In this document: positions 3,777 through 56,635 of the stretch, piece after piece
Position numbering within the stretch: the first letter of the stretch is position 1
How the letters are laid out: each line of letters starts with the position of its first letter
From: Acutalibacteraceae bacterium
GTDB taxonomy: Bacteria; Bacillota; Clostridia; Oscillospirales; Acutalibacteraceae
Assembly: GCA_045537915.1 (NCBI GenBank)
Contig: JAZSQK010000010.1
Span: 5,717-69,716, forward strand
DNA length: 64,000 nt
Direction of reading: 5' to 3'
Translations under genes and position numbers: made by a program
The notes under the pieces: generated by a model
Database searches by the model: none
Told to the model about the DNA's origin: nothing
Seen by the model: the letters and a program-made list of their open reading frames with translations, nothing else

Positions 3777-5375
3777 TTAAACCTTACGGGTATAGTCGGG
3801 AAGCAGCTTGGGCGATACGGTTGCAGTTTCGATTCCTGCAGACTTAATCTGGTTTTCAAACTCTTCAATATGTGAAAGGGTAAGTTTGCCTACCTTTACA
3901 TTTTTAGCCTTGGCAGCCGCATTCATACCTGCGCTTCTGCCGAAAACGATGATATCAAGAAGAGAGTTGCCCATAAGGCGATTTCTTCCGTGAATTCCTC
4001 CTACCGCTTCTCCTGCTACAAACAGATTTTCAACATTTGTAGTCATACAGTCAGAGCCGATATCAAGGCCGCCGTTCTGGTAGTGGAGTGTGGGGTAAAC
4101 AAGAATGGGCTCCTTACGAATGTCGATTCCGTATTTTTCAAACATTCTCCACATTGCAGGAATTCTCTTCATAATGGTTCCCTCTCCGCCGATCTTTTCA
4201 ATCATAGGAGTATCAAGCCATACGCCCTTGCCGTTGCCGGTTTCTACGCCGTTGTTTCTCTCGTTACATTCACGGATAATTGAGGCTGCAGAAACATCTC
4301 TGGTTTCGAGCGGATGCATAAACACCTCGCCCTTTTCATTAACCAGCTTTGCGCCCAGAGAGCGAACCTTCTCGGTAACAAGCGCACCGAAAATCTGCTC
4401 TGGATATGCAACACCTGTAGGATGATACTGCAGAGTTTCGGCATAAAGCAGCTTTGCGCCTACCCTGTAGCCAAGAACAAGGCCGTCAGCCGTTGCGCCG
4501 TAATGGTTAGAAGTCGGGAAGCCCTGATAGTGCATACGTCCTGCGCCGCCCGTTGCAATAATAACCGTTTTAGCTTTTGCAACAAGCAGTTCCTTGGTTT
4601 CCATATTCATAAGCACTGCGCCGGCAGCATTGCCGTTTTCATCCAAGATAAGCTCAACCGCAGCAGTAAAATCAACTACCGGAATATTGCGGTTAAAGAC
4701 CTCATCACGAAGGGTTCTCATTATTTCGGCACCCGAATAGTCCTTTGCGGCGTGCATACGCTTACGGGAGGTTCCTCCGCCGTGGGTTGTAACCATTGTG
4801 CCGTCGGCATCCTTATCGAACTCAACCCCTAAATTGCTTAGCCACTGAATTGCCTCTGGAGCATCGCAAACAAGCTTTGACAAAAGCTCTCTCTTTGCGG
4901 CAAAGTGACCGCCTCCGAAGGCATCTACAAAGTGGATTGCGGGAGAATCATTGGGCTTGTCGGCCGCCTGAATGCCGCCCTCGGCCATCATTGTGTTGGC
5001 ATCGCCTATACGAAGCTTGGTAACGATCATTACGTCTGCTCCGGCTTCGTTTGCCTCAATAGCAGCCGATGCGCCTGCTCCGCCGCCGCCGATTATAAGA
5101 ACATCGGTTTCATAATCGGGCGCCGAAAGGTCAACGCTTTCGGCAGTAATGCGGCTATGCGCCTGAAGAATTTCGGCTAGCTCCTTCGGCACCTTTTCTC
5201 CCTTGTTGGCGCCGATTTTAAGGACATCAAATTCTTCCTTTTTGTAGTCCGGATGGAAAGCCGCAAGAAGATCTTCCTTCTGCTTTGCTGTCATTCGGTC
5301 GGGCTCAAGAGCAATATTTTTTTCTCTTGCCGCTTCAACTGCAGCAATAGATTTCTGAAAATTTTCCGAATACAT
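3777..5375 (-). CDS. Soluble fumarate reductase/succinate dehydrogenase-type flavoprotein (FrdA/TfrA-like)
   Basis: DVLIIGGGGAGASAAIEA dinucleotide fold, LQYHPTG, LVTEKVRSLGA, TLHYQNGGL and LFVAGEAVGGIHGRNRLMGNSLLDIIVFGR match FAD_binding_2/succ_DH_flav_C motifs. About 90 aa of N-terminal extension. Confidence 0.75.
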   Translation of the reverse strand: MYSENFQKSIAAVEAAREKNIALEPDRMTAKQKEDLLAAFHPDYKKEEFDVLKIGANKGEKVPKELAEILQAHSRITAESVDLSAPDYETDVLIIGGGGAGASAAIEANEAGADVMIVTKLRIGDANTMMAEGGIQAADKPNDSPAIHFVDAFGGGHFAAKRELLSKLVCDAPEAIQWLSNLGVEFDKDADGTMVTTHGGGTSRKRMHAAKDYSGAEIMRTLRDEVFNRNIPVVDFTAAVELILDENGNAAGAVLMNMETKELLVAKAKTVIIATGGAGRMHYQGFPTSNHYGATADGLVLGYRVGAKLLYAETLQYHPTGVAYPEQIFGALVTEKVRSLGAKLVNEKGEVFMHPLETRDVSAASIIRECNERNNGVETGNGKGVWLDTPMIEKIGGEGTIMKRIPAMWRMFEKYGIDIRKEPILVYPTLHYQNGGLDIGSDCMTTNVENLFVAGEAVGGIHGRNRLMGNSLLDIIVFGRSAGMNAAAKAKNVKVGKLTLSHIEEFENQIKSAGIETATVSPKLLPDYTRKV

Positions 5376-5387
5376 AAACTTTCCTCC

Positions 5388-6062
5388 TTACTTCTCGATT
5401 TCTCTGGTATTATAGAGTTCTTTCATCTCATCTATCGGCTTGTTCATAAGAGCCTCAATAAGCTCATTAAAGTCGCCGTTTTTGATTTCCTTTACTCTAT
5501 CCTCAAGATGTCCGCAACCGGGCGCAAGATATTTGCCGTTGATTCTTCTGGCAAGCATTGCAACCTGAGGGTGCGAAATTCCTGCTGGGCATCTCGCTGA
5601 GCAAACGCCGCACATTACACAGTCAAAGGACTCCTCTGCGCACTTTTCAAAATCTCCACGCTGAGCATAGGCTATGTACTGCATAACGTTAAGCTTCTGT
5701 GTGCAGATCTTTGTACAGGCGTTACAGCCTACACAGGCATAAATTTCGGGATAAAGCTGCATCATAACCGTCTCGGTTACAGGAATTTTTTCAATGTCAT
5801 AAACCTGCTTTACAAGGGGGAAGAAGGGCAATGTTGCAATATACATATTGTCCTCAACCTTGGTCTGACAAGCAAGACAGGCCTTAAGCTCTCTGTCCCC
5901 TTTTATGCGATAAACAGTGGCACAGGCACCGCAGAAGCCGTTACGGCAACCGCAACCACGCACCAGCTGATATCCGGCATATTCCATAGCGGTCATAATC
6001 GTTAAATTTTCGGGCACTTCATACTTCTTGCCGAAAAGAAAAATGTTAACCATTTTTTCCAT
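5388..6062 (-). CDS. SdhB/FrdB-type iron-sulfur subunit (2Fe-2S plus two cubane-cluster motifs)
   Basis: CGCRNGFCGACATVY...C (plant-type 2Fe-2S as in SdhB), CVGCNACTKIC and CVMCGVCSARCP. Confidence 0.7.
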   Translation of the reverse strand: MEKMVNIFLFGKKYEVPENLTIMTAMEYAGYQLVRGCGCRNGFCGACATVYRIKGDRELKACLACQTKVEDNMYIATLPFFPLVKQVYDIEKIPVTETVMMQLYPEIYACVGCNACTKICTQKLNVMQYIAYAQRGDFEKCAEESFDCVMCGVCSARCPAGISHPQVAMLARRINGKYLAPGCGHLEDRVKEIKNGDFNELIEALMNKPIDEMKELYNTREIEK

Positions 6063-6074
6063 ATTACCTCTCCT

Positions 6075-6908
6075 TTAATACTCACTGGGAAGTTCTTCCA
6101 GCTCATCACAGCGGAAAACAGGTCCGTCTTTGCAAACATATTTAGAACCGACGTTGCATCTGCCGCACTTACCGACTCCACACTTCATTCGAAGCTCAAG
6201 AGTTGTGTAAACATTGGTTTTCTCAAAGCCGAGCGCTACAAGTCCCTCTAAAGTAAACTTTATCATTATAGGCGGTCCGCAAAGCACTGCAACCTTGTCG
6301 GTATCAAAGCCGAGTTCCTTTACAAAGTTGGGAACAAAGCCTACATGTCTGTCCCAGCCCTCCTGAGCATTATCAATAGTCAGGTGGACATTAACTCCCG
6401 CATCGGTCGACCATTCCTCAATTATTTCCTTGTAATCAAGAAGGTCGTCCTTGCTTCTTGAGCCGTATACTATATCGATTTTACCGTAACGGTCACGGTA
6501 GTGACGGCAATAGTTAATTACCGAACGAAGAGGCGCAAGGCCCACGCCACCCGCAATGAAAAGCAGATTTTTACCTGCGAACACATCATCAACAGGGAAA
6601 GGCTTTCCGTAGGGTCCTCTGATTGTAATCTGCTGACCTACCTCTGCCTGATGTAACCACTCGGTAACGCAACCGCACTTCTTTATGGAGAACTCCATAA
6701 ACTCTTCGTTTGTCGGAGAGGAGGTTATAGAGAACATTGCCTCGCCCACACCGGGTACCGAAAGCATAGCGCACTGACCTGGCATATGGTCGAATGCCTT
6801 TTTGCCGTCGGTTGTGACCACTCTGAAGGTTTTAATGTCAGGAGTGTCTATTCTGACATCAGTAATGACGCCAATCTTTGGAATTAAGGTTTCGTCGTAG
6901 TTATTCAT
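6075..6908 (-). CDS. flxA: FAD/NAD(P)H-binding oxidoreductase with C-terminal 2Fe-2S (FlxA / AsrB / hydrogenase-gamma / PyrK-like)
   Basis: FRVVT...PGQCAML (FAD barrel), LLFIAGGVGLAPLRS (NAD fold), CGPPIM and CGVGKCGRCNV...C cluster. Start trimmed to the ATG at 6908, which overlaps the upstream stop (ATGA). Confidence 0.7.
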   Translation of the reverse strand: MNNYDETLIPKIGVITDVRIDTPDIKTFRVVTTDGKKAFDHMPGQCAMLSVPGVGEAMFSITSSPTNEEFMEFSIKKCGCVTEWLHQAEVGQQITIRGPYGKPFPVDDVFAGKNLLFIAGGVGLAPLRSVINYCRHYRDRYGKIDIVYGSRSKDDLLDYKEIIEEWSTDAGVNVHLTIDNAQEGWDRHVGFVPNFVKELGFDTDKVAVLCGPPIMIKFTLEGLVALGFEKTNVYTTLELRMKCGVGKCGRCNVGSKYVCKDGPVFRCDELEELPSEY

Positions 6909-7930
6909 TTTCCAAGACCTCCAAGCTTCTTCATTACTTTTACTATATTCATAGAAATAGGACACCTTGAAAGGCAACGTCCGCAGCCCACACAGCTAAA
7001 CAGTCCGTCATTATTTTCGGGATAATAAACAAGCTTATGCATAAAGCGTTGACGGAAACGCTCCATCTGTGTATTTCGGTTGTTTCCGTGTGCCATTCTT
7101 GTAAAATCGGAATACATACAGGAATCCCAACATCTGTAGCGGATAACTCCCTTGCCTGTGTTGAAATCCTTAATGTCATAGCACTGGCAGGTAGGACAGA
7201 CAAAGGTACATGTTCCGCAACCGAGACAGGCTTCGGACAGCTCATTCCATTCAGGCGCATTAAAGAACTTATTTGTCTTACCGCCGCCGAAGGAATCTGT
7301 CTTAAGGTCCTTAAGAGGCAGTTTTTCCATAATGGCGGAAATTTTCTTTTTCATATTATCTGCGGCATTTTCAGAGCATTCCTCGGTAATATCCGAGAGT
7401 GTCTTTAAAAGGGCCTCTCCCTTTTCGGTATTAGCCTTTAAAAACAGTTCGCTTTCATTTTTCCATACGCTGATATCCCCTGCAGGTTCGGCAGGGTCAA
7501 TGCCGAAGGTTTTACAAAAACAGGTTTCGGCAGGTTTTGAACAAGCGACCGACACGAGTATGCCGTGTTCTCTCCTTGCCGCATAAAAGCTATCGACCGG
7601 CTCACTAAGGAACACTCTGTCGAGTATATCAAAGCTCTTTACATCACAGGCTCTGATTCCGAAAATCACAAAATCCTCGGTAGCGCTTCTTGTGTCGATA
7701 ACCTCGATATTTTTTCCCGAAGTCTTGAATTCCATCAGGTTTTCGGTCTGGGGGAAGAAGAAATCCTTGGGACTTCTTACGGTATTGAGGGCATTGCTCC
7801 AGGTTGTGCCCTCCTCCCACTTTTTGAAGGCGGCGGTGCCGTCATTCTGGTCTACAGGAAGATAAAGGGTGGCACTCTCGGCAATTCTTTCAAAAAGAGT
7901 ATTTACAGAGTCAAGAGAACATTTACGCAT
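6905..7930 (-). CDS. flxB: Fe-S protein, FlxB / AsrA / sulfhydrogenase-beta-like
   Basis: CLGCGTCTFVCPTCQCYD and CVGCGRCLSRCP motifs. Start trimmed to the ATG at 7930 (MRKCSLD), overlapping the flxC stop (ATGCGTAA). Confidence 0.65.
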   Translation of the reverse strand: MRKCSLDSVNTLFERIAESATLYLPVDQNDGTAAFKKWEEGTTWSNALNTVRSPKDFFFPQTENLMEFKTSGKNIEVIDTRSATEDFVIFGIRACDVKSFDILDRVFLSEPVDSFYAARREHGILVSVACSKPAETCFCKTFGIDPAEPAGDISVWKNESELFLKANTEKGEALLKTLSDITEECSENAADNMKKKISAIMEKLPLKDLKTDSFGGGKTNKFFNAPEWNELSEACLGCGTCTFVCPTCQCYDIKDFNTGKGVIRYRCWDSCMYSDFTRMAHGNNRNTQMERFRQRFMHKLVYYPENNDGLFSCVGCGRCLSRCPISMNIVKVMKKLGGLGK

Positions 7931-8921
7931 CGGTATTCCTCCTCTCAAAAGCCTCGCCGGGTTCGATATCCTCGGTGGTATAGTCGACAAGCGGCGCTCT
8001 GGAGCCTACCTCGGCTCCAGCCTGATATTCTCCGTAAAATTCATTTATATCCTTAATAAACTTGCGGTTTAAAAGATGTAGAGGAATATTCTGCGGACAA
8101 ACTCTTGAACATTCGCCACAGTCGGTACAACGTCCCGCAACATGATAGGCTCTGATAATATGGAACATCTTTTCTTCAAAGCTGTTTGCAGGAGATTTGT
8201 TTTCAACCCCCGAATCAGCGTTTCCAAAGACACACTTTTCGCAGGTACAGGCAGGACATACGTCACGACAGGCATTGCAGCGGATACAGCGTGAAAGCTC
8301 ATTCTGCCAGAAGGCAAATCTTTCTTCCGCCGTCATTGCCTCAAGTTTTGCAACCTCGTCAAAGCGGTTTGAATCCAGAATCTCGCCCTCCTCGCCGAGC
8401 AGCTCGTCATAGGCGACATGCTTTTTGCTCTTGCAGTTTAGGCATCTTTCGGCAAGAACATCCTTTATATCAATCAGAACAGGCTCATCATCATAAAGGG
8501 TTGTAACAGAAAGTTTATCCCCTACCGATTCTATCGAAGAGATTCCCTCCCCTGCTACCGCCTTTACCTTTGCTATATCAACCATTCCCTCACAGCCAAC
8601 GCCGACGGCATAGACCTTTTCTCTGTCAAAACGGTGCTCGGTCAGAAGCTGATTAAAGCTATATGTATCGCAGGGCTTTAAGAAAACGAGTATCTTACCC
8701 TCTGTTTTCTGGGTTTTTGAAACGAGATATTTTGAGAAGTTTGCTCCGCAAAAATCGTTCCATACAAAATTTTCTCTGATTTCTTGCTCGGTAGTGAAAA
8801 CGGCGGGTGTAATATCGTAATCGAACTCGCCCTTACTCCAACCGAGAATAGCGGTCACGGTTCCCTCTTTGAGTAAAGAAACCGCCCTTTCAACCAGTTG
8901 TTCACGGGTTACTTTTTGCAT
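7923..8921 (-). CDS. flxC: Fe-S protein, FlxC-like (4Fe-4S dicluster C-terminal half)
   Basis: CIRCNACRDVCPACTCEKC and CTDCGECSRVCPQNIP. Lies between the mvhD-like and flxB-like genes, as in flx clusters. Confidence 0.6.
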   Translation of the reverse strand: MQKVTREQLVERAVSLLKEGTVTAILGWSKGEFDYDITPAVFTTEQEIRENFVWNDFCGANFSKYLVSKTQKTEGKILVFLKPCDTYSFNQLLTEHRFDREKVYAVGVGCEGMVDIAKVKAVAGEGISSIESVGDKLSVTTLYDDEPVLIDIKDVLAERCLNCKSKKHVAYDELLGEEGEILDSNRFDEVAKLEAMTAEERFAFWQNELSRCIRCNACRDVCPACTCEKCVFGNADSGVENKSPANSFEEKMFHIIRAYHVAGRCTDCGECSRVCPQNIPLHLLNRKFIKDINEFYGEYQAGAEVGSRAPLVDYTTEDIEPGEAFERRNTDA

Positions 8922-9343
8922 CTCAGGTCCTCCAATCTCTTGTTTTCTCCAAGACCTGCTACCGTCTTTACAAAGTCATTCATAGTGGCTGCAAATTTTG
9001 CGCCCTCTGCCGCAGAAACCCACTCAACACGGGTTCTTTCCTTCTCAATTCCGAGAAAATCAAGCATTGAGAAGAGGGCGGTCATTCGGCGGCGTGTATA
9101 GTAGTTGCCCGAGGTGTAGTGACAGTCTCCCGGGTGGCAACCGCAGATTATAACTCCGTCTGCGCCCCTCTGGAATGCCCTAAGGACAAACATTGGGTTA
9201 ACACGACAAGAACAGGGTACTCTGATTATCTTAACATCGGCAGGATAATTAAGGCGGTTGTTTCCTGCAAGGTCGGCTCCGGCATAGGAGCACCAGTTAC
9301 AACAAAAAGCAACAATCAAGGGCTTATATTCATTTACTTGCAT
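8909..9343 (-). CDS. mvhD: MvhD/FlpD-family protein (methyl-viologen-reducing hydrogenase delta subunit-like; FlxD)
   Basis: IVAFCCNWCSYAGADLAG, IRVPCSCRVNP and ADGVIICGCHPGDCHY are the FlpD signature. Start trimmed to the ATG at 9343 (MQVNEYKPL), overlapping the hdrA stop (ATGCAAGTAA). Confidence 0.85.
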   Translation of the reverse strand: MQVNEYKPLIVAFCCNWCSYAGADLAGNNRLNYPADVKIIRVPCSCRVNPMFVLRAFQRGADGVIICGCHPGDCHYTSGNYYTRRRMTALFSMLDFLGIEKERTRVEWVSAAEGAKFAATMNDFVKTVAGLGENKRLEDLRCKK

Positions 9344-11328
9344 ATTGCATCTACCTCCGCCATAATCTGTCGGCTTGCAAAGCCTCTGAGGTCCATCGCT
9401 CCCGAAGGACAGGCAACCGTACAAGCACCGCAGCCCTGACAAACAGCAGGATTAACCACCGCTACCCTTCTGGTCTTGGTTGTTCTGTCGGGCATACGGA
9501 AATCCTTATCCTCATAGGAAATAGCGCCGTAAGGGCAAACTCTTTCGCAAGAGGAGCAGCCGTTACACATAAGCTCATTACTACTTGCTATACAGGGGTT
9601 GCCCATAAGCTTATCCTTGGCAAGAAGTCCTATTACCTTGGATGCCGCAGCGCCCGCCTGAGAAACAGTTTCGGGGATATCCTTCGGTCCCTGACAGGCT
9701 CCCGACAGGAAAACTCCCGCAGTCGGACTCTCAACCGGTCTGAGCTTGGGGTGAGCCTCGGTAAAGAAGTCATTTGTATCCATACTTGCAGTCAGCATTG
9801 TGGCTAACGGACGGGCCGATTTATCGGGCTCTATAGCCGCCGCTAAGACCACCAGATCGGCATCTATATGGAGCTGCTTGTTATTAAGAAGGTCTGAAGC
9901 CTGAACCAAAAGCTTATCTCCCTGAGGAGTTACCTTTCCGACCATTCCCTTTATGTATTTTACGCCATACTCTTCAACTGCACGACGGTAAAACTCATCA
10001 AAGTTCTTACCCGGAGTTCTTACATCTATATAGAATACATAAACCTCGGTATCGGGATATTTATCCCTTGTGAGCATTGCGTGTTTTGCAGTATACATAC
10101 AGCAGATTTTAGAGCAATACTCCTTTCCCTTCTCGGCGCAGGAATCACAGCGTGAACCCACACACTGAACAAAGACTATTGTATGGGGGTGCTTACCGTC
10201 AGATGGGCGTACAAGCTTTCCTGCAGAGGGTCCTGCCGCATTCGTAAGACGCTCAAACTCGAGAGAGGTAATAACATCCTTCGACTGACTGTAGGCAAAC
10301 TCGTCAAATTTATCAAGGCTAATCGGATTAAAGCCTGTCGCAACCACGATGGCGCCGTATTTTTCCTCTATATACTCGTCCTTCTGGGTATAATCTATAG
10401 CCCCTGCGGTACAAACTCTGGCGCAAAGGCCGCACTTTCCGTTTTTAAGCATATTACAGGCGTTCGGGTCAATAGTAGCAACCTTTGGAACTGCCTGTGC
10501 AAAGGGAATATAGATTGCGCTTCGGTTATCCATACCGAGATTAAACTCGTTAGGAATTTTCTTCATAGGACATTTTTCAACACAGGCTCCGCATCCTGTA
10601 CAAACGTCCTCTTTAACATAACGGGCATTCTTCTTGATTGTAACGTCAAAGTTACCAACAAAGCCCTTTATTTCAGATACCTCACTATAGGAGAAAATTC
10701 TGATTTTCTCATTCTGCGCAACATCAACCATTTTAGGTGTGAGGATACATGCCGCACAGTCAAGGGTCGGGAAGGTTTTGTCAAGCTGAGCCATCTTTCC
10801 GCCGATTGTGGGCTTTGTTTCAACTATATCAACAGGAAAACCTGCATCGGCAATATCAAGTGCAGTCTGAATACCTGCAATACCGCCACCGATAACAAGC
10901 GCCCTCTTTGTTACGGGAGATTCTCCAGGTGTAAGAGGTGTGTTAAGGTTAACCTTTGCTATTGCGGCTCTTCCGAGTATGATTGCCTTTTCGGTACCTG
11001 TTGCAATATCCTTATGTACCCAGGAGCACTGCTCACGGATATTGGCAATTTCAACCATATAAGGATTGAGTCCCGCAGCAGCGGCAGTCTTACGGAAGGT
11101 TGCCTCGTGCATTCTCGGAGAGCAGGAGCAGACAACGATTCCCGTAAGCTTATGCTCGGCAACCGCTTCCTTTATCATATCCTGTCCTGCCTGAGAACAC
11201 ATATACTGATAATTGGTGGAAAAGACGACGCCCGGCTCGTTTTTCAAGGCTTCAGACACTGCCTGTACATCTACAGTACCCGCAATATTGCTTCCGCACC
11301 AACATACAAAAACACCAACTCTTTGCAT
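9334..11328 (-). CDS. hdrA: Heterodisulfide reductase subunit A-like flavoprotein
   Basis: VGVFVCWCGSNIAGTVD, ALVIGGGIAGIQTALDIADAGFPV...GGKMAQLDKTFPTLDCAACILTPKM, and several CxxCxxCxxxCP ferredoxin motifs. 664 aa. Confidence 0.9.
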   Translation of the reverse strand: MQRVGVFVCWCGSNIAGTVDVQAVSEALKNEPGVVFSTNYQYMCSQAGQDMIKEAVAEHKLTGIVVCSCSPRMHEATFRKTAAAAGLNPYMVEIANIREQCSWVHKDIATGTEKAIILGRAAIAKVNLNTPLTPGESPVTKRALVIGGGIAGIQTALDIADAGFPVDIVETKPTIGGKMAQLDKTFPTLDCAACILTPKMVDVAQNEKIRIFSYSEVSEIKGFVGNFDVTIKKNARYVKEDVCTGCGACVEKCPMKKIPNEFNLGMDNRSAIYIPFAQAVPKVATIDPNACNMLKNGKCGLCARVCTAGAIDYTQKDEYIEEKYGAIVVATGFNPISLDKFDEFAYSQSKDVITSLEFERLTNAAGPSAGKLVRPSDGKHPHTIVFVQCVGSRCDSCAEKGKEYCSKICCMYTAKHAMLTRDKYPDTEVYVFYIDVRTPGKNFDEFYRRAVEEYGVKYIKGMVGKVTPQGDKLLVQASDLLNNKQLHIDADLVVLAAAIEPDKSARPLATMLTASMDTNDFFTEAHPKLRPVESPTAGVFLSGACQGPKDIPETVSQAGAAASKVIGLLAKDKLMGNPCIASSNELMCNGCSSCERVCPYGAISYEDKDFRMPDRTTKTRRVAVVNPAVCQGCGACTVACPSGAMDLRGFASRQIMAEVDAICK

Positions 11329-11342
11329 TAGTCCTTTCCTCC

Positions 11343-11729
11343 CTACTTAGTATATTTTCTGAACATGCTGACAAGCAGCTGTTGAGGTGTATCCCCATCA
11401 ACAATCTCAGGTATATTGTCGGCAGTTAAATGATTTTCGCCCTGTTTTCTTACTGCGGCAAGGCGGACTGCCTCAACCAGCTTTGCAGGTTCGACACCTC
11501 TGGGGCATCTTTCAATACATGCAAAACAGGAAAGACATTTATATAACGACTCTGATTTAAGCAGAGGTTCAATATCGCCGCTTTCGACCATATTTACGAA
11601 CTGATGAGGATGGTATTCCATCTCGTCATATGCGGGACAGGTTGCCGAACACTTTCCGCAGCGCATACATTTTCTGGGATTAACTCCGCTTATGCGCACA
11701 ATTTCTTCCTGAAGATACTTATTTTCCAT
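11343..11729 (-). CDS. hdrC: Heterodisulfide reductase subunit C-like (2x 4Fe-4S)
   Basis: CMRCGKCSATCP and CLSCFACIERCP. 128 aa. Overlaps hdrB by 11 nt. Confidence 0.85.
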   Translation of the reverse strand: MENKYLQEEIVRISGVNPRKCMRCGKCSATCPAYDEMEYHPHQFVNMVESGDIEPLLKSESLYKCLSCFACIERCPRGVEPAKLVEAVRLAAVRKQGENHLTADNIPEIVDGDTPQQLLVSMFRKYTK

Positions 11730-12513
11730 TTGTATCCTCCTTTACACCGAGGGCCTGTGCCAAAAGCTCGGTAAAATATACAACCGGAATGTCTGTGCCG
11801 TTTTTAATAAGGTTAAAGCGGCAAAGAGGACATGCGGTTATTATCATTTCGGCGCCCTGTGCCTTTGCATTTTCAACTACTGCATTGCTGTTCTTTTTAG
11901 CAAGTTCAGGGCTCTCTGTAGATATGTATCCGCCGCAGCATTCGTTGCGTCTTGCATAGATTACTGCCTCGGCGCCGAGCGCTCTGATAAAATCCTCCAT
12001 AATGGTAGGATTTTCGGGGTCGTCCATCTTCATAACACCGCTCGGTCTTAAAAGCAGGCAGCCGTAATATGCTGCGATTTTTTTGCCCTTAAAGGAATTT
12101 ACAACCCTTTCTTTAAGGGTATCAAAGCCAACCATATCACGGAGCATTTCGAGATAATGTAAAACCTCGGTCTGACCGTTATATTCTGCCTCATCAGACA
12201 TATATCTGTTTACCTTGTCGGCAAACTCTTTGTTATCTGACAAGGCATAATTTGTCTGCTTTATTACATTGTGACAGGCCGAGCATACCGTAACAAGCGG
12301 CTGTTCCTTATCATATGCAGCTTTAAGCGCACGAACAGATGAAAGCTTTGTTGCTATCTCGTCTGTAGCGGTTGTAAACACACCGCCGCAGCACTGCCAA
12401 TTTTCAATTTCTTCCAGAGTAACACCCAGAGCCTCTGCCGATTTACGAGCATAGATATCAAGGTCTTTAGCCTTATTCTTAAGGGTGCAGCCCGGAAAAT
12501 AACTAACCTTCAT
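11719..12513 (-). CDS. hdrB: Heterodisulfide reductase subunit B-like (two CCG domains)
   Basis: Two Cys-rich CCG motifs (WQCCGGVF...CSACH and NECCGGYIS...ACPLC). Confidence 0.85.
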   Translation of the reverse strand: MKVSYFPGCTLKNKAKDLDIYARKSAEALGVTLEEIENWQCCGGVFTTATDEIATKLSSVRALKAAYDKEQPLVTVCSACHNVIKQTNYALSDNKEFADKVNRYMSDEAEYNGQTEVLHYLEMLRDMVGFDTLKERVVNSFKGKKIAAYYGCLLLRPSGVMKMDDPENPTIMEDFIRALGAEAVIYARRNECCGGYISTESPELAKKNSNAVVENAKAQGAEMIITACPLCRFNLIKNGTDIPVVYFTELLAQALGVKEDTNGK

Positions 12514-12527
12514 TAGATTACCTCCGA

Positions 12528-13904
12528 TTACGCCATCTCTTCGGGATGGAAAACTTCATCAAATCTCTCGGCAGTTAAAAATCCGAGTTCAACACAGGCC
12601 TCTTTGAGAGAAATATTATCCTTAAAGGCCTTTTTTGCTGTCTTAGCGGCATTTTCATAACCGATATAGGGGTTAAGCGCCGTAACAAGCATTAAGGAGT
12701 TGTGCAGATTATGGTGCATCTTCTCCTTATTCGCCTTAATTCCCACCGCACAATTCTTATTAAATGAGGTTATTGCCTCAGCCAAAAGTCTTGCTGACTG
12801 GAGGAAGTTGTAAATGCATACAGGCATAAATACATTCAGTTCAAAATTGCCCTGAGAAGCCGCCAGGCCGACCGCAACATCGTTACCCATTACCTGAACC
12901 GCAACCATAGTTACCGCTTCGCACTGTGTGGGATTTACCTTGCCGGGCATTATAGAAGAACCGGGTTCGTTCTCGGGAATAAATATCTCGCCGAGTCCGT
13001 CACGTGGACCTGATGCTAACCAACGGATATCGTTTGCTATCTTCATCATATCGCAGGCGAGAGCCTTGATTGCGCCGTGGGCAAAAACAAGCTCATCCTT
13101 TGAGGTTAATGAATGGAATTTATTTGCCGCAGTTATAAAGGGCTTTCCTGTGATTTTTGCAACCTCTGCCGCTACCCCTGTATCAAAGCCGTCGGGCGCA
13201 TTAAGTCCGGTTCCGACAGCAGTTCCACCGAGGGCAAGTTCATAAAGAGGCTCTATAGAGCGCTTTACAAGCTCGATATCCTTCTCTAAACTTGAACGCC
13301 AACCGCTTATCTCCTGGCTGAACTTTATGGGTGTTGCATCCTGCAAATGTGTTCTTCCGCTTTTTACTATTCCTTCATTCTCAGCCTCAAGTCTTTTAAA
13401 GGTTTGGATAAGCTCCTTTGCCGCAGGAATAAGCTTATCCTCCAGAATAAGCACAGCAGCAATATGCATTGCGGTTGGGAAGGTATCGTTTGAGGACTGG
13501 CTCATATTTACATCATCGTTAGGATGAAGAAGCTTTTTGCCTAATATCTGATTACCTCTGTTGGCGATAACCTCGTTGGCATTCATATTGGACTGGGTTC
13601 CCGAGCCTGTCTGCCAGACAACCAGCGGAAAATGTCCGTTCAGTTTGCCCTCTCTTATTTCGTCACAGGCAACCGAGATTGCCTTCATTTTTTCCTCGGT
13701 CATCTTTTCGGGACGAAGGGCGTGATTGGCAATAGACGCCGCCTTCTTAAGAATTCCGAATGCATTGATTATTTCGGCCGGCATGGTTTCGATTCCAACG
13801 CCGATTTCGAAGTTTTCGTGGCTTCTCTGTGTCTGAGCCGCCCAAAGACGATCTGCGGGGACCTTCATTTCTCCCATTGAGTCATGTTCGATACGATATT
13901 CCAT
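12528..13904 (-). CDS. fumC: Class II fumarate hydratase
   Basis: GSSIMPGKVNPTQCEA lyase-1 signature. MEYRIEHDSMGEMKVPADRLWAAQTQRS N-terminus. 458 aa. Confidence 0.95.
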   Translation of the reverse strand: MEYRIEHDSMGEMKVPADRLWAAQTQRSHENFEIGVGIETMPAEIINAFGILKKAASIANHALRPEKMTEEKMKAISVACDEIREGKLNGHFPLVVWQTGSGTQSNMNANEVIANRGNQILGKKLLHPNDDVNMSQSSNDTFPTAMHIAAVLILEDKLIPAAKELIQTFKRLEAENEGIVKSGRTHLQDATPIKFSQEISGWRSSLEKDIELVKRSIEPLYELALGGTAVGTGLNAPDGFDTGVAAEVAKITGKPFITAANKFHSLTSKDELVFAHGAIKALACDMMKIANDIRWLASGPRDGLGEIFIPENEPGSSIMPGKVNPTQCEAVTMVAVQVMGNDVAVGLAASQGNFELNVFMPVCIYNFLQSARLLAEAITSFNKNCAVGIKANKEKMHHNLHNSLMLVTALNPYIGYENAAKTAKKAFKDNISLKEACVELGFLTAERFDEVFHPEEMA

Positions 13905-13922: not shown

Positions 13923-14864
13923 TTAAAACTGAATACTGTTGATTACCTGCTTGAGACTCTCTGCGCTCTTGTGTAAAGCGGCAACTTCACTGTCGTTTAG
14001 CGGAAGCATTACCTTGCCGTTAACCGTCTTATTTCCCACAACGGTCAAAAGGCTAAGACAGACATCGTCTATTCCGTACTCACCGTGAAGCATGGTTGAA
14101 ACGGTCAGGGTGGTATCAAGATTGCTGAGCAGACATTTGCAAACGTGGCAAACCGACACCGATACTGCGTAATAGGTGGCTCCCTTGCGCTGAATTACAC
14201 GGGCGCCCGATTTGCGAACGTAGTTTTCAACCTCTTCGATATCAAAATTAGGATATTCCTCATCTGTTACAACTGCTTTGCTGAAATCTGTTATCGGAAC
14301 ATTCGAAATGTTGGCAATAGACCAGGGAATAAATGAGGAATCGCCGTGCTCTCCAAGCACATATGCGTGAACATTCTTCTGGTTGACCGAATAGTATTCA
14401 GCTACCCTTGCACGAAGCCTTGCGGTATCCAGAATGGTTCCCGAACCGATTACACGGTTTTCGGGAATTCCCGAGCATTTGCAAAAAACATATGTGAGAA
14501 CGTCAACGGGATTGCTTACTATTATGTAGGTTGCATCAGGTGCGTGTTTTACTATCTGAGAGGCAACCGCTTTAATTACGTTTACATTGGTCTGGGCAAG
14601 GTCAAGCCTTGACTGGCCCGGCTTTCTGGCAAGACCCGAAGTAATAATAACTATGTCTGAATTTTCGGCATCCGCATATGTACCTGCATAAACAAAGGTG
14701 GGATTGCAGAAAGGAACACCCTGTCTGATATCCAGAGCCTCTCCCAAGGATTTTTCTTCATTTATGTCGATCATAACTATTTCGGAGGCAATTCCCATAA
14801 TGGTCAAGGTGTAGGCAATGGTTGAGCCTACGCTTCCCGAGCCGACTATTGTAATTTTATTCAT
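13923..14864 (-). CDS. mdh: Malate dehydrogenase (LDH-like MDH subfamily)
   Basis: KITIVGSGSVGST Rossmann fold. The substrate-discriminating position reads GLARKPGQSRLDL, with Arg as in MDH (PRKPGMSR) rather than the Gln of LDH. GEHGDS active-site His. Confidence 0.75.
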   Translation of the reverse strand: MNKITIVGSGSVGSTIAYTLTIMGIASEIVMIDINEEKSLGEALDIRQGVPFCNPTFVYAGTYADAENSDIVIITSGLARKPGQSRLDLAQTNVNVIKAVASQIVKHAPDATYIIVSNPVDVLTYVFCKCSGIPENRVIGSGTILDTARLRARVAEYYSVNQKNVHAYVLGEHGDSSFIPWSIANISNVPITDFSKAVVTDEEYPNFDIEEVENYVRKSGARVIQRKGATYYAVSVSVCHVCKCLLSNLDTTLTVSTMLHGEYGIDDVCLSLLTVVGNKTVNGKVMLPLNDSEVAALHKSAESLKQVINSIQF

Positions 14865-14899
14865 ATAAAAACCTCTTTTCTTTTTGTATGGTTTGTTTT

Positions 14900-16072
14900 T
14901 TAAAAATAACTTACATTTACCCTTTTACCCATTTGCTTAAGACATAATGCAAGTTCATCCACTAAATTCATTTTAATTATAAAGGTTATTGGCAGGTCGG
15001 GACTTTGATGTGCAGGATTAACCGCAGTTCCGACAAAAATCTTTATATCTGTGGCTTCCTCAAACAACAACCTGCACATACGGGAGGCTCCGTCATCCTG
15101 AACACTCCAGTTTTTGTACTCGATATTGTCGGCAAGATAATCCTTGGCAAGTTCAAGCACCCTGTTTACAGTAATAATTCCCTCTGTCACAAGGTCAACT
15201 CCCTCGATGGTTGCAACCGGAGGCATACCCGACTCGCTGAAATCAAGAGATGCCTTTAAGGGTTTATTGAGATACCTTGCCGCAATCGACGAGGTTGTTC
15301 CGCCACAGACTATATACTTACCCTTTTGAGCAAAGAACTGCGCCATCATGCGATTGGTGTCCTCGTGGTCGGCAGGAGGTCCGAAAAGCATATTCATAGG
15401 CAACCTGTTTTTGACCCTTATAACACAGGCGGTCGCATCATCTCCGGGTGTGTACCCGTATAGTCTGTCGCACTCATCTATAAGATTGGTTGCCAGAACC
15501 TTTGCGGTGTGATTATCTTTAGCCAGGCCCTGAGTATACTTTGCGATCTCTTCCCGTCTCCAACCGAAATTGAAGCTTCTGCCTATACCCGCATGAGAAC
15601 AGCCGTCTGTTATTGCAACAATAACATCCTCTTCCTTAAGTTCAATCTGAGAGCAGAAAACAGGTTTTCCGCAGATAATCTCTTTTGTTTTAGGATAATC
15701 CCAGACCTCGCCGTCACGTATGATTATTATCTCGGGATTGTCGTACTGAAATATCTGGGCTGTTTTATTGTTCTTTAAATGTATTACTGTAAAGGTTGAA
15801 TATGCGACTCCACGGACAGAGCATACAGGCAGTATTTCATCAATTGTTGAAATACATTCCTCCAGAGATGCCCCCTTCGCAATCATCGAAGAAAGGGTTT
15901 TTGAGGTTAAGGTTGCAAGGACATTCGCCTTTACTCCGCTGCCCAGACCGTCGCAAAGCACGATAATCTTTGAGTTTTCATCGGTCTCAAGGATATCGAT
16001 ATTGTCGCCGCAAAGCTTTTCGCCGTAATGAAGTATGCTTTTATATCCGATTTCAACACATAAATCACTCAT
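14900..16072 (-). CDS. PP2C/SpoIIE-family serine phosphatase with an additional ~190 aa C-terminal domain (HfsC-like partner of sensory hydrogenases)
   Basis: GEKLCGDNIDIL...VLCDGLGSGVKANVLA...ITDGCSHAG matches the SpoIIE/PP2C metal-binding Asp motifs. Overlaps the hydS stop by 8 nt. Confidence 0.7.
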   Translation of the reverse strand: MSDLCVEIGYKSILHYGEKLCGDNIDILETDENSKIIVLCDGLGSGVKANVLATLTSKTLSSMIAKGASLEECISTIDEILPVCSVRGVAYSTFTVIHLKNNKTAQIFQYDNPEIIIIRDGEVWDYPKTKEIICGKPVFCSQIELKEEDVIVAITDGCSHAGIGRSFNFGWRREEIAKYTQGLAKDNHTAKVLATNLIDECDRLYGYTPGDDATACVIRVKNRLPMNMLFGPPADHEDTNRMMAQFFAQKGKYIVCGGTTSSIAARYLNKPLKASLDFSESGMPPVATIEGVDLVTEGIITVNRVLELAKDYLADNIEYKNWSVQDDGASRMCRLLFEEATDIKIFVGTAVNPAHQSPDLPITFIIKMNLVDELALCLKQMGKRVNVSYF

Positions 16073-17741
16073 CTGCCGCAGACTCCTTCAGTTTTGAAAG
16101 CTTAACCTTTGTCTCGGCAACGGTCTCTCCCAAAAGGGATGCTACCTGCTGAACCATATTCATATGCAGCTCAAGCACCTCATCGGCCGTTTGCGCCGTC
16201 ATATGACCGATTTTTTCTTTCTCTTCCCTCTCGTTTTCATCGTCGGTAACGTCCCTGATAATTCCAATGATAAGGTGGGAAGCTTTATCATAGATTACAG
16301 TGCGCTCTACATATTTGTTATATCGGTCAAGATATACCCGTTCATTACGGGCAAACCTTTTGTTTTCCAAGGCGTTTATGAAAACCGTAGGGTCAAGAAT
16401 TCTCATTACCTCTGAACCTATTACTTCAGAAGCAGAAGCAATGTTCAGAATTTTTTTTGCAGCCTCATTTATCTGACAAACCTCAAGGCTTTCGTTTAAA
16501 AGTATTATTCCGTCGGGGAAATTTTTAATAATATTGTTTGAAAAGCTTTCATTGTTTCCTTTTAAAAGGGGTAAACACATTGAAATATCAGCCTTACCCT
16601 GACATACTGCCTCGGCCTTTTGTCTGCAGGTGTCGTAACCGCAAATTCCGCAGTCAAGCTGTTTTTCCTTTTCTACTCTTCCCATCTGAGAGAGAACCTT
16701 TTCAATTTCTTTTGCCGACGGTGTAGCCCGTTTAAGCAGAGTTTTATTAAACTGCTTTTTTATTCCATCAGTTTGGGCATTATATATCTTTAAATTATCC
16801 TCTGATGCAGAGTTTAATATTTTTAAATAATCCTCTACAGGTTTTGAAGCGTATTTTTTCTCCATAGCGTGACTGCCTATACATCCGCCTTCGCACGCCC
16901 ACATCTCAATAAAGCAATTATTCACGCTGTTATTTTCTATTTCACAAAGGGCGGCAATGCAGTCTTCTATTCTGTCAAGAGAGATGTATGTAAACTTTTG
17001 AGGTTTATCTTCCATCGACTTTATAATTCCGCCCGAAGTAGCCATCAGACGTTCTTTTGCGCCCTTTTGGATATCGCTTTCGGGGCTAAGCTTTATGTTT
17101 GCTTCACCCAGCAAGGCCGAAAGCTCCCCAAAGGTAATCGCCGCATCGACGGCCCCGCCGCATTCCTGCAGTTCGTCCTTTGCGGCTATGCAAGGGCCTA
17201 TGAAAACAGTCTTTGCATCAGGATATCTCCTCTTTATATCGGTACAATGAGCCTGCATAGGCGAGACAACCTGAGCAAGATATTTTTGATTTTCCGGAAA
17301 ATACTTCCTTATAAGAAGATTCACAGAGTGGCAGACCGAGGATATTACAATACCGCTTGTTTTCTCGCAAAGTGTTTTTTCATATTCAGCCTTAACCATT
17401 GCTGCGCCGACAACAGTTTCCTCGACCTCAAAGAAGCCCAGTTTTTTAAGGGCATTTTCCATTGAGCTTATGCCCACCGAATAATTTGCGATAAAGGCGG
17501 GAGATATACTGGCTATTACAGGGGCATCCCCTTGTAACAGACCCTTTACCCTCTCTACATCGTTTGCAACCTCTTTTGCGTTCTGTGGACAAAAGGTTAC
17601 GCATCTGCCGCAGATTATACAGTCTTTATAGTTTATGTACGCCTGATTTGAAGCAAAGCCTATTGCTTTTACAGGACAGTTCCGAATGCACTTATAACAG
17701 TCTTTGCAGTTTGATTTTTTTGTAGTCAAACAAATAGACAT
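16065..17741 (-). CDS. hydS: Putative sensory [FeFe]-hydrogenase (group C, HydS/HfsB-like) with C-terminal PAS domain
   Basis: N-terminal CKDCYKCIRNCP/CIICGRCVTFCP ferredoxin motifs. H-cluster motifs are altered as in HydS: SSVCHSV (instead of TSCCP), GPCIAAKDE and EMWACEGGCIGS. An extra Cys cluster CGICGYDTC...C...C is followed by a PAS-like ~110 aa. Confidence 0.8.
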   Translation of the reverse strand: MSICLTTKKSNCKDCYKCIRNCPVKAIGFASNQAYINYKDCIICGRCVTFCPQNAKEVANDVERVKGLLQGDAPVIASISPAFIANYSVGISSMENALKKLGFFEVEETVVGAAMVKAEYEKTLCEKTSGIVISSVCHSVNLLIRKYFPENQKYLAQVVSPMQAHCTDIKRRYPDAKTVFIGPCIAAKDELQECGGAVDAAITFGELSALLGEANIKLSPESDIQKGAKERLMATSGGIIKSMEDKPQKFTYISLDRIEDCIAALCEIENNSVNNCFIEMWACEGGCIGSHAMEKKYASKPVEDYLKILNSASEDNLKIYNAQTDGIKKQFNKTLLKRATPSAKEIEKVLSQMGRVEKEKQLDCGICGYDTCRQKAEAVCQGKADISMCLPLLKGNNESFSNNIIKNFPDGIILLNESLEVCQINEAAKKILNIASASEVIGSEVMRILDPTVFINALENKRFARNERVYLDRYNKYVERTVIYDKASHLIIGIIRDVTDDENEREEKEKIGHMTAQTADEVLELHMNMVQQVASLLGETVAETKVKLSKLKESAADE

Positions 17742-17786
17742 ATCCCGTTACATCCTTTCAAGAAATAAAGCTAATCTTTTCACAGA

Positions 17787-18038
17787 TTATAATTTTGCCA
17801 ATACCTCTTTGTTGAAGAACTCCTCAGCTGTGTCGGGCGATACCGAATGAAAGTTATCGTCAACCGAAACGCAAACGCCCTCCTGACATCTTCCCATGCA
17901 GAAAGTGCCGCCAAGATCCACCTGTTCTTCAAGCTTATGCTGAGCAATTAAATCCTTAAGCTTTTCGACCACCTGTCTGGAGCCTTTTACGTGACAAGAG
18001 CTTCCGATACATACAGTAATTTTCATTTGATAATTCAT
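17787..18038 (-). CDS. Thioredoxin-like [2Fe-2S] ferredoxin (NuoE/HfsA-like)
   Basis: KITVCIGSSCHVKGS...GGTFCMGRCQEG has the four Cys in the NuoE-type spacing. 83 aa. Confidence 0.7.
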   Translation of the reverse strand: MNYQMKITVCIGSSCHVKGSRQVVEKLKDLIAQHKLEEQVDLGGTFCMGRCQEGVCVSVDDNFHSVSPDTAEEFFNKEVLAKL

Positions 18039-18112
18039 CCTTTCAAATAGGGTTTATCGAATTAAAGACAATTAACTACAGGATTAGAGGTAAAACCACC
18101 CCAATTATTAAA

Positions 18113-18141
18113 ATTATACAGCATAAAAGCCCTAATATCAA
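18113..18141 (-). promoter_or_regulatory. Sigma-70-type promoter for the 2Fe-2S/hydS array
   Basis: Minus strand reads TTGATA-17 nt-TATAAT (complement of 18136-18141 and 18113-18118), about 75 nt upstream of the ATG at 18038. Confidence 0.55.
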
Positions 18142-18274
18142 TATAAAAAAACGCTAATTGTTATTTTTTTAACATTTTTTAAAGTTTTTCCGTAATATTC
18201 TCTTTGATTTTGGTATAAATGTTTAGTAGGGCAGATTTCCCGTCCTGTTTTAAGCTAACTTTTCTTGTTTTTTA

Positions 18275-18316
18275 CAGTAAAAATTCAACACCGTTCGGAT
18301 AATACCGAACGGTGTT
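18275..18316 (-). terminator. Rho-independent terminator after the mrp-like gene
   Basis: AACACCGTTCGG / CCGAACGGTGTT 12-bp stem, followed on the minus strand by GAATTTTTAC. Confidence 0.7.
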
Positions 18317-24413: not shown

Positions 24414-24547
24414 GCAAAAAGAAAGATTTTGCCGCAAAACAGGCCTGTCTTGCCTAGCCTATTCAATTATAATACACAAATAATTTAAATGCAATATCCA
24501 AAGGTTGATAAATTGGGCTAGTTTTAAAATAAATTGACCTATTTACA

Positions 24548-25549: not shown

Positions 25550-25762
25550 AATTTTCACCTCCGAAAAATGTAGGAAAAGTCTTCTTTTCCAAATAATAAA
25601 ACCTGTCCCCCGAAGACAATAGAGGACAGGCATAAACATCACTTAAAAAGTTTGTTTAGGAACCTCGGTAGGCGTTAAATCCTTATCGCAAATGCGACCT
25701 ACTGTCTTCGGCTATGACATAATAACACACATACTGTGCTTTGTCAACTAATTTTTTCTTGA
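25550..25762 (-). promoter_or_regulatory. Long structured 5' leader upstream of rplJ, in the position of the L10 autoregulatory leader
   Basis: 213 nt non-coding gap with hairpins (for example CCTGTCC...GGACAGG at 25603-25631). Assignment is by position only. Confidence 0.35.
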
Positions 25763-56621: not shown

Positions 56622-56635
56622 TTAGTCCTCCGTAT

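Follow-up and report, generated by a model that had tools for sequence, protein, structure and literature searches.

The hfs-like module and its operon

We analysed a 64,000-nucleotide (nt) stretch of DNA from an Acutalibacteraceae bacterium (assembly GCA_045537915.1, contig JAZSQK010000010.1, positions 5,717 to 69,716), which is referred to here as the window and whose own numbering is used throughout. It carries three genes that resemble the hydrogenase-like signalling genes hfsABC and that are followed directly by genes for fumarate reduction to succinate. A preliminary description of this DNA had recognized a sensory module of the HydS/HfsB type with a PP2C phosphatase, and both the Pfam and NCBIfam domains and the conserved pairing of HydS with PP2C agree with it. 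Judging from the gene layout, the locus is almost certainly a single minus-strand operon of about 15.7 kb and 15 genes, extending from a Rex-box-like site and promoter near 18175-18113 to a terminator at 2441-2474. The features at the upstream end and at the two boundaries are the following.

18287-18316, no strand assigned: strong, bidirectional intrinsic terminator upstream of the operon; 12-bp stem with seven G-C pairs, then a T-run
18158-18175, no strand assigned: Rex-operator-like palindrome ATGTTAAAAAAATAACAA (minus-strand reading), 16 nt upstream of the -35 hexamer
18113-18141, minus strand: sigma-70-type promoter TTGATA-17-TATAAT, 11 of 12 consensus matches
17787-18038, minus strand: hfsA-like thioredoxin-like [2Fe-2S] ferredoxin; open reading frame (ORF) of 83 amino acids (aa); PF01257, E = 1.8e-8
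16065-17741, minus strand: hydS/hfsB-like group C [FeFe]-hydrogenase homologue, 558 aa, by Pfam/NCBIfam domains and motifs
14900-16072, minus strand: hfsC-like PP2C/SpoIIE phosphatase, 390 aa (PF07228), overlapping hydS by 8 nt
14865-14899, minus strand: PP2C-mdh junction, 35 nt, with an AAGAGG ribosome-binding site inside
2441-2474, no strand assigned: strong, bidirectional terminator at the operon end; stem of 15-16 bp with seven G-C pairs

The terminator at 18287-18316 closes an upstream mrp/apbC-like gene and is the upstream limit of the transcription unit. All intergenic gaps across the 15 genes are 45 nt or shorter, and several genes overlap. Candidate hairpins between the boundary terminators have stems of 5-10 bp, compared with 12-16 bp at the boundaries themselves, and no Rfam elements were found in the operon locus. 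The promoter had been noted before at the same place and was recovered by our scan. The junction between the phosphatase gene (stop at 14900) and mdh (start at 14864), a position occupied by hfsD in the closest relatives, had likewise been described as a 35-nt gap free of terminators and promoters. Scanning 14865-14899 returned no terminator-like and no promoter-like site, and the fold of the surrounding 131 nt (14835-14965) gave z = -0.74 against shuffled sequence. The sole stem at the junction is AU-rich, with two G-C pairs, and finishes in the T5 run that the conserved ..SYF-stop codons contain. The same T-run occurs in the relatives, with hfsD starting 10-15 nt beyond it. The 35-nt spacer of the window (TAAAAAACAAACCATACAAAAAGAAAAGAGG..) is similar to the hfsD-mdh spacers of two related loci, L036 and L001, which fits the view that an L001-like ancestor lost its hfsD ORF. 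GC content and GC content at third codon positions (GC3) are uniform over the module and the succinate array; horizontal transfer of the module, which shows no compositional sign, was set aside. No exact records of the window PP2C, FumC, L1, NusG, Mdh or HdrC proteins were found on look-up.

The small 2Fe-2S protein described at the head of the module has its PF01257 match. Where the relatives have two 2Fe-2S genes, it resembles the first, with 62-75% identity. Its true start is probably the second ATG, at 18026, giving 79 aa, since the proteins of the relatives are 79 aa long and begin MKIT.., and since an AAAGGA ribosome-binding site precedes this codon.

The palindrome at 18158-18175, which the preliminary description did not mention, differs by two mismatches from the clostridial Rex operator TTGTTAANNNNTTAACAA. 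Two such sites were observed in the 64 kb, with 0.65 expected. The related loci described below carry boxes of this kind 40-150 nt upstream of adhE or rex; these have 0-2 mismatches, and the ATAACAA half-site recurs among them. The position of the window site is suggestive of Rex control of the operon.

An altered active-site pocket in the hydrogenase homologue

We examined the domains of the hydrogenase homologue and compared its active-site pocket with those of 136 homologues, comprising the 78 closest relatives and 58 distant ones, in CpI numbering. Two Fer4 motifs lie at the N terminus (families at residues 9-55), followed by Fe_hyd_lg_C at residues 74-289 (E = 3.6e-39), PF04060 at residues 361-391 and PAS at residues 403-500, where PAS_9 scored 28.5 bits against a cut-off of 27 and PAS was also above its cut-off. 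The alignment of the PF04060 region contains the Cx2Cx4Cx16C cluster motif that has been defined for group C enzymes (PMC8163306). The motifs SSVCHSV, GPCIAAKDE and EMWACEGGC align to TSCCP, MPCTSKKFE and EVMACHGGC of CpI. These results support the earlier identification of a HydS-like protein with a PAS domain, an extra four-cysteine motif and these three motifs. All four H-cluster cysteines are kept (C137, C184, C283 and C287, corresponding to C300, C355, C499 and C503 of CpI), while V136, G182 and W281 stand at the altered positions C299, M353 and M497. The pocket residues of the window protein compare with those of the homologues as follows.

A230: Ser in the window; Ser in none of the 136 other homologues
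S232: Ala in the window; Ala in four other homologues
C299: Val in the window and in no other; all 78 closest relatives keep Cys (SSCCHS/TSCCHS)
K358: Ala in the window; Ala in three other homologues
Position 497: Trp in the window and in no other; the relatives have Ser
L3 'GGP': GSH in the window and in no other

The columns of K358, S232, A230 and GGP are at least 97% conserved in the 78 relatives and at least 90% conserved in the 58 distant homologues. Residues that hydrogen-bond to the [2Fe] sub-cluster and position it are not conserved in the window protein (K358A, S232A, A230S and GGP to GSH). The cavity of the cofactor is lined by A230, P231 and S232, and K358 is in contact with the distal CN ligand (PMC10147833). 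Sensory enzymes normally conserve the residues that hydrogen-bond to the [2Fe] cofactor, and the CpI variant M497L lacks a properly integrated [2Fe] cluster (PMC10055695). In this alignment, the window pocket is more altered than that of any close relative. The motifs had been called degenerate in the manner of HydS. They are indeed altered, but the rare or unique pocket changes indicate a manner of their own: the changes are lineage-specific, and the 78 closest relatives keep Cys299 and Lys358. Since these relatives retain the C299-C300 pair together with Lys358, loss of the proton-transfer cysteine is not uniform in PAS-bearing group C enzymes. In more distant HydS homologues, position 299 is occupied by Ser, Ala or Asp.

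The phosphatase and its unnamed C-terminal domain

The phosphatase gene overlaps the hydS stop by 8 nt, as had been noted. The overlap is also present in the relatives, and by this arrangement the gene is translationally coupled to hydS. Residues 36-221 form the SpoIIE/PP2C domain, covering positions 6-192 of the 192 in the PF07228 profile. The best PDB matches of this domain in Foldseek were SpoIIE 5mqh (E = 2.5e-14), 5ucg and Rv1364c 3ke6. The PP2C metal-binding motifs D23, D41-G-x-G, D156-G and D211-D212 are invariant across the alignment.

Residues 222-390, about 170 aa, form a C-terminal domain that had been described as an uncharacterized domain of about 190 aa. While it is indeed unnamed, it is not special to this protein, as every full-length HfsC-type phosphatase examined has it. 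The HydS-PP2C pair, this domain included, was found in 131 loci and persists where HydS identity falls to 30%. The search for full-length homologues of the phosphatase found more than 8000, those listed all being 390-397 aa long. The C-terminal domain is better conserved than the catalytic half. In a search of cluster representatives (50% identity) it occurred in about 1020 clusters, mostly as fusions of about 390 aa. Some proteins of about 160 aa, such as P0144, P0153 and P0167, apparently contain it as a stand-alone domain.

Searching 13 members against Pfam at E-values up to 10 yielded no family for the C-terminal domain, which would therefore merit definition as a new domain family. The pLDDT scores (predicted local distance difference test) of the AlphaFold models were moderate, at 76.6 for the full-length phosphatase and 66.7 for the C-terminal domain alone. 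An alpha/beta, Rossmann- or flavodoxin-like fold is predicted from the model. Foldseek searches of the domain against PDB and BFVD gave nothing significant; the best E-values, 0.02-0.03, belonged to generic flavodoxin/Rossmann-like folds (UbiX, MgsA and SLOG). A profile search of PDB sequences gave a weak match (E = 0.043), which we treat as a lead only, to phosphoheptose isomerase 3trj near the conserved CGGTTS loop; we take 3trj to have a SIS-type fold. The earlier suggestion that this domain could substitute for a kinase found no support, as neither the sequence nor the fold searches gave any kinase signal; the domain may bind a ligand or serve in docking.

Related loci and the absent partner genes

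We compared the window with 82 related loci, taken from species-representative genomes and from contigs with close homologues, in which genes were mapped by tblastn. Most are metagenome-assembled genomes of Acutalibacteraceae, Oscillospiraceae and Ruminococcus, to which Yeguia hominis NSJ-40 is added. The commonest layout is [rex]-adhE-(249-aa APH/RIO-like kinase)-2Fe2S-2Fe2S-HydS-PP2C-HfsD. Of the 71 loci whose flank is long enough, 68 carry HfsD no more than 1.3 kb beyond the phosphatase. The APH/RIO-like kinase is upstream of hfsA in 53 of the 82 loci, adhE is present in 35, and in 25 rex immediately precedes hfsA. A pair of 2Fe-2S genes occurs in 66 loci; the window has a single one.

No HfsD/HydA2, APH/RIO-like kinase or Rex gene was detected by tblastn in the 64-kb window. 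Among the scanned window ORFs, which were of any length up to position 24500 and of at least 150 aa beyond it, no protein kinase, GHKL ATPase, STAS protein or HydEFG was found. Three genes at 55200-58971 whose lengths were suggestive of hydEFG are glgA, glgD and glgC. These searches brought up no kinase, in line with what was noted earlier, although the Ruminococcus albus model and 53 of the 82 relatives include one. The same earlier note had taken hfsD itself for a kinase. The hfsD product is instead a catalytic [FeFe] hydrogenase linked to ferredoxin (PMC11837493; Pfam matches of the L001 and L002 proteins), and this hydrogenase is the most striking absence from the window.

The putative APH/RIO-like protein kinase (249 aa; PF01636 and PF01163; e.g. 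L002:7303-8052) is encoded just before the first 2Fe-2S gene, with adhE on its other side. Both as the neighbouring Ser/Thr kinase of the R. albus model and as the enzyme counteracting PP2C, it is a candidate. In L033 (12120-13588), a trio of sigma factor, anti-sigma kinase-like and STAS-like genes, judged by eye to resemble spoIIAA-spoIIAB-sigF, is convergent to HydS-PP2C. These are classical partners of SpoIIE-family phosphatases, and their position is probably coincidental.

The module adjoins succinate genes in about 18 of the 82 Oscillospirales loci, and it does so in four geometries. In five loci (L001, L005, L036, L046 and L055) mdh directly follows hfsD, with fumC-hdr-flx next where the contig continues. 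A gene of the Ldh/Mdh family lies between the phosphatase and hfsD in L008, L024, L058, L072 and L074, and the array follows where the contig allows. The array and permease are just upstream of the module in L062, L064 and L073. Finally, the array is divergent from the module in L042, and mdh is divergent in L022, L027, L029 and L040. The same association occurs in L087, a distant human-gut contig whose HydS is 44% identical to that of the window and whose gene order is Rex-Fd-HydS-PP2C-HfsD-Mdh-FumC-HdrBC. When a neighbourhood outlasts several rearrangements, this usually points to functional coupling.

Three relatives (L033, L064 and L073) also lack hfsD. In the cultured Yeguia hominis NSJ-40 (L073:9056-11173), the succinate operon and permease are followed by Rex, one 2Fe-2S gene and PP2C, and both hydS and hfsD are missing. 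Evidently, the phosphatase can survive beside succinate genes without the hydrogenase-like sensor.

Divergence of the sensor and its conservation in a second strain

We next considered how far the module has diverged from that of the relatives. Between the window and L001, identity is 94% for HdrA and 90% for FumC, compared with 52% for HydS and 67% for PP2C. L001 itself is 93-94% (HdrA), 95-96% (FumC), 72-73% (HydS) and 79-82% (PP2C) identical to L058, L072 and L074. In neighbour-joining trees, HydS and PP2C of the window are each sister to the whole clade of relatives, and the terminal branch of the window HydS (0.27) is the longest in its tree, where the median is 0.06. The outgroups L100 and L085 have HydS proteins that are 56-58% identical to the relatives, compared with 47-48% to the window, which indicates a relative-rate excess in the window HydS. 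This protein has lost 15 of 80 universally conserved columns. The window PP2C is far less affected: 87% of the clade-invariant columns are kept, and among 64 universal columns there are four changes, all conservative.

One further member of the window HydS protein cluster was found on L165, a 2.8-kb contig from a different sequencing run. Its hydS is 97.7% identical to that of the window in nucleotides and 98.9% in protein, and its pocket is the same (S80, A82, V136, A187, W281, S290 and H291). L165 also shares the spacer upstream of hydS and the overlapping PP2C start. By the Nei-Gojobori method, the two hydS genes differ by 31.5 synonymous and 6.5 non-synonymous substitutions (ratio of non-synonymous to synonymous rates, dN/dS = 0.052). 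Over the 363 PP2C codons available, the differences were 44 and 12 (dN/dS = 0.068). The same pocket in a second strain, together with dN/dS values of 0.05-0.07, indicates that the module is functional. The pattern fits a past burst of sensor change that was followed by constraint.

Apart from L165, scans of genomes and metagenomes for closer relatives returned nothing above 68% identity for PP2C or 57% for HydS. Two other candidates were irrelevant, namely P0391 on L166, a 41-aa cluster member, and P0394 on L167, a 407-aa Mdh with an internal duplication and about 68% nucleotide identity.

The succinate genes downstream of the module

Downstream of the phosphatase gene, the operon continues with these genes.

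13923-14864, minus strand: mdh, LDH-like malate dehydrogenase (Ldh_1_N, Ldh_1_C), with Arg at the specificity position (GLARKPG)
12528-13904, minus strand: fumC, class II fumarate hydratase; TIGR00979 at 708.6 bits against a cut-off of 664.75
11719-12513, minus strand: hdrB-like gene with two CCG domains (PF02754); NCBIfam likeness to TfrB and SdhE
11343-11729, minus strand: hdrC-like 4Fe-4S dicluster protein, by Pfam/NCBIfam
9334-11328, minus strand: hdrA-like flavoprotein; NF040770 HdrA2, E = 8.5e-234; 94% identical to L001
8909-9343, minus strand: mvhD/flxD-like gene; PF02662, E = 1.5e-54; start set from 144-aa relatives
6075-8921, minus strand: flxC-, flxB- and flxA-like genes, for two FeS proteins and an FAD/NAD-binding protein (Fer4 families, Fer4_22, NAD_binding_1, DHODB_Fe-S_bind)
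3777-6062, minus strand: frdB-like (2Fe-2S + 4Fe-4S) and frdA-like (FAD_binding_2) genes, soluble fumarate reductase subunits
2493-3755, minus strand: permease of the Asp-Al_Ex family; PF06826, E = 1.5e-52

The window Mdh is 80% identical to the L001 protein encoded beside fumC. It passes the NCBIfam cut-offs of both L-lactate dehydrogenase models and of one malate dehydrogenase subfamily model. Considering the Arg at the discriminating position and the neighbouring fumC, the L-lactate dehydrogenase names of public homologues are probably wrong. The Frd subunits are 83-93% identical to those of L062, L073 and L074. On their family matches, the HdrA-like protein is a candidate electron-bifurcating subunit and the permease a candidate succinate exporter. 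Many uncultured Oscillospirales of gut and rumen carry clusters with 80-95% identity to the genes hdrBCA-mvhD-flxCBA-frdBA (3777-12513).

The genes at 3777-12513 correspond to the electron-bifurcating NADH:fumarate/ferredoxin system proposed for Pseudoclostridium thermosuccinogenes, whose succinate operon would, on that proposal, link the oxidation of NADH with the reduction of fumarate and ferredoxin (PMC7282089). The preliminary description had suggested that the succinate electron sink is controlled by H2 or co-expressed with the H2 sensor. Co-expression is supported by the operon structure, and a functional link by the roughly 18 of 82 loci and by L087. Control could run in either direction; in P. 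thermosuccinogenes, which has this type of succinate operon, 85% H2 almost abolishes succinate formation (PMC7282089).

Comparison with known systems

In Thermoanaerobacterium, hfsB encodes a PAS-containing [FeFe] hydrogenase, hfsC a serine phosphatase and hfsD a ferredoxin-linked catalytic hydrogenase like R. albus HydA2 (PMC11837493). The hfsABCD genes of T. saccharolyticum and T. thermosaccharolyticum (PMC5707799, PMC11837493) share with the window the order of small Fe-S protein, PAS-bearing hydrogenase homologue and Ser phosphatase, and both systems are proposed to choose the electron sink of fermentation. Unlike them, the window lacks hfsD, is fused to a succinate operon and has an altered H-cluster pocket, and the published output of the Thermoanaerobacterium genes is adhE and ethanol, not succinate. 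HydS/HfsB has been linked to the regulation of hydA2 and adhE (PMC5707799, PMC10838669), and a neighbouring Ser/Thr kinase is part of the R. albus model (PMC5707799).

The HydS-HydA2 unit of R. albus 7 (Zheng et al. 2014, via PMC5707799, PMC10838669) resembles the window in that a PAS-bearing putative H2 sensor is co-transcribed with its presumed targets. The adhE-kinase-hfsABCD layout of related Oscillospirales loci is like this unit. In the window, however, the HydA2/HfsD and kinase genes are absent, and the transcript would instead be shared with mdh, fumC, Flx-Hdr and Frd. According to published descriptions, enzymes of group C3 share a transcript with H2-evolving hydrogenases of group B or A (PMC6163223, PMC8163306); the window, unlike this description, has no such partner.

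TmHydS of Thermotoga maritima, a group C (M2f) enzyme, has the same domain order as the window protein, Gly in place of M353 and no Cys299 (PMC10055695, PMC8163306). It differs in its substitutions, which are Cys299 to Ala and Met497 to Ser with the [2Fe]-bonding residues conserved, whereas the window protein has Val299 and Trp497 along with K358A, S232A, A230S and GGP to GSH, and its 78 closest relatives keep Cys299. The phosphatase shares its PP2C-fold catalytic domain with the RsbU/SpoIIE partner-switching phosphatases. In contrast to the RsbU/RsbV/RsbW system, no STAS substrate or GHKL anti-sigma kinase is present among the scanned window ORFs; the presumed input is a hydrogenase-like protein, and the extra C-terminal alpha/beta domain has no counterpart in RsbU/SpoIIE.

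The succinate operon of P. thermosuccinogenes, comprising fumarate hydratase, Flx-Hdr, fumarate reductase and a transporter, has the same content as the genes downstream of mdh. The report describes no sensory-hydrogenase module at its head (PMC7282089), whereas the window and about 18 related loci have one adjacent. A link between the sensor-phosphatase pair and Flx-Hdr-dependent fumarate reduction had no earlier description in the literature that we found. The general idea of sensor regulation has already been published for adhE and hydA2; new are the link to succinate genes, the minimal architecture and the naturally occurring variant of the active site.

A proposed role and its alternatives

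On balance, we think it somewhat probable that the locus is a remodelled signalling module of the hfsABC type (group C3) that has been fused to an Flx-Hdr/Frd succinate operon and steers fermentation electrons. We infer that it originated by loss of hfsD, that the sensor signals to the phosphatase and that the succinate pathway is affected. The ancestral layout was most likely hfsABCD-mdh-fumC-hdr, as in related Oscillospirales. The ferredoxin-dependent hydrogenase gene hfsD would then have been lost; also missing are the neighbouring Rex and kinase genes and the second of the 2Fe-2S genes. The sensor may have diverged fast at the same time as these losses or afterwards, its [2Fe] sub-cluster pocket being rebuilt and its iron-sulfur ligands kept, and both sensor and phosphatase are now under strong purifying selection. 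Through its Fe-S clusters and PAS domain, the hydrogenase-like protein would report H2, the redox state of the ferredoxin pool, or both. Its state would alter the activity of the attached PP2C, and the resulting dephosphorylation of a phosphoprotein would adjust the share of reducing power sent to fumarate reduction. Rex may add NADH/NAD+ control at the promoter. Through co-transcription, the level of the sensor would follow that of the pathway. HfsD and an H2 gauge would be logical companions of a fumarate reductase system that reduces ferredoxin.

Several points weigh against this proposal. Co-transcription is deduced from sequence, and the PP2C-mdh junction is seen in one assembly, the L165 contig stopping inside the PP2C gene. 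The Rex-like box has two mismatches, and 15% of shuffles give at least two such sites in the window. A PP2C substrate, kinase or DNA-binding output was found neither in the window nor in the literature that we read. As the window sensor is sister to all 78-84 relatives, replacement from an unsampled lineage and acceleration in place are not separable in these trees. Finally, K358A, S232A and Trp497 may block [2Fe] binding, in which case H2 sensing would be the wrong description.

The last point leads to an alternative in which the sensor no longer binds [2Fe] or senses H2 and instead gauges redox state with its Fe-S clusters and PAS domain, that of the ferredoxin pool for instance, while still signalling through PP2C. 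We regard this as unlikely but deserving serious attention. The unique or rare substitutions fall on residues that frame the [2Fe] site or hydrogen-bond to it, residues that are conserved in sensory enzymes, and the cluster is poorly integrated in CpI M497L (PMC10055695). Moreover, the partner gene for an H2-evolving hydrogenase is gone, and two strains share the new pocket, which purifying selection maintains. Yet all four H-cluster cysteines are kept, K358A recurs in three other homologues, S232 is Ala in the aligned T. maritima HydA chain, and position 497 varies in groups C and D (PMC8163306). A stronger form holds that the sensor gave up H2 chemistry altogether, with its pocket filled and the cyanide-anchoring residues gone but with every Fe-S ligand, the PAS domain and the coupled PP2C maintained by strong purifying selection, and became a dedicated ferredoxin or redox gauge for the bifurcating fumarate reductase; this we hold to be unlikely. 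Such a gauge would be a bacterial parallel to the eukaryotic hydrogenase-like proteins Nar1/NARF. It is also conceivable, if rather improbable, that the adjacency is an inherited gene order, that Rex switches the operon by NADH/NAD+ and that HydS-PP2C targets adhE or another hydrogenase elsewhere. The Rex-box-like site adjoining the promoter would fit, as would rex upstream of hfsA in 25 of the 82 loci and the good Rex boxes before adhE or rex there. Pairing with adhE (35 of 82 loci) is commoner than pairing with succinate genes (about 18), and the published effects of hfsB deletion concern adhE (PMC5707799). Inheritance alone, however, hardly explains a module-succinate neighbourhood that survives four rearrangements and recurs in L087. 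No adhE or hydrogenase gene is nearby in the window, and when hfsD was lost, the module was not deleted with it but ended up joined exactly to mdh.

Two further explanations carry far less weight. The long branch, the 15 of 80 universal HydS columns lost and the missing partner genes could mark a remnant decaying after the loss of hfsD, kinase and Rex. This is highly improbable, given that the ORFs are intact and full length, that the coupling overlap, all cluster ligands and all PP2C metal-binding motifs are kept, and that dN/dS is 0.052 and 0.068 between strains differing at 2.3% of hydS nucleotides. We find it barely credible that the hydrogenase homologue is itself a working ferredoxin-oxidizing hydrogenase that replaces HfsD. 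TamHydS and TmHydS do keep a low H+/H2 turnover (PMC8163306), and the closest relatives retain the Cys-Cys pair. The window protein, however, lost Cys299 (now Val) and Lys358 and gained Trp497, scores 173 bits with TIGR04105 against a cut-off of 450 bits, and keeps its PAS domain and its coupling to the PP2C gene.

To our knowledge, H2 sensing and the choice between H2, ethanol and succinate as electron sinks in fermenting gut and rumen bacteria are still largely hypothetical, and we know of no identified output of the group C 'sensory' hydrogenases. A minimal version that lacks the neighbouring catalytic hydrogenase, kinase and Rex isolates the sensor-phosphatase pair with its presumed target. 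Natural active-site substitutions that are maintained by selection can test which residues turn a hydrogenase into a sensor. Together, the succinate linkage, the minimal architecture and the pocket variant make the sensor function more directly testable. The succinate and H2 output of Oscillospirales bears on propionate formation in gut and rumen and on methane emission.

Other features of the window

Past the operon terminator lies a truncated ORF for an IS200-type Y1 transposase (2083-2361, 92 aa; positions 2-62 of 121 in PF01797), which adjoins a tRNA gene at 1868-1951. Elsewhere in the window, a ribosomal protein L10 leader (25587-25729, 65 bits) lies upstream of rplJ, and a T-box leader (60557-60802, 112.5 bits) lies upstream of trpB.

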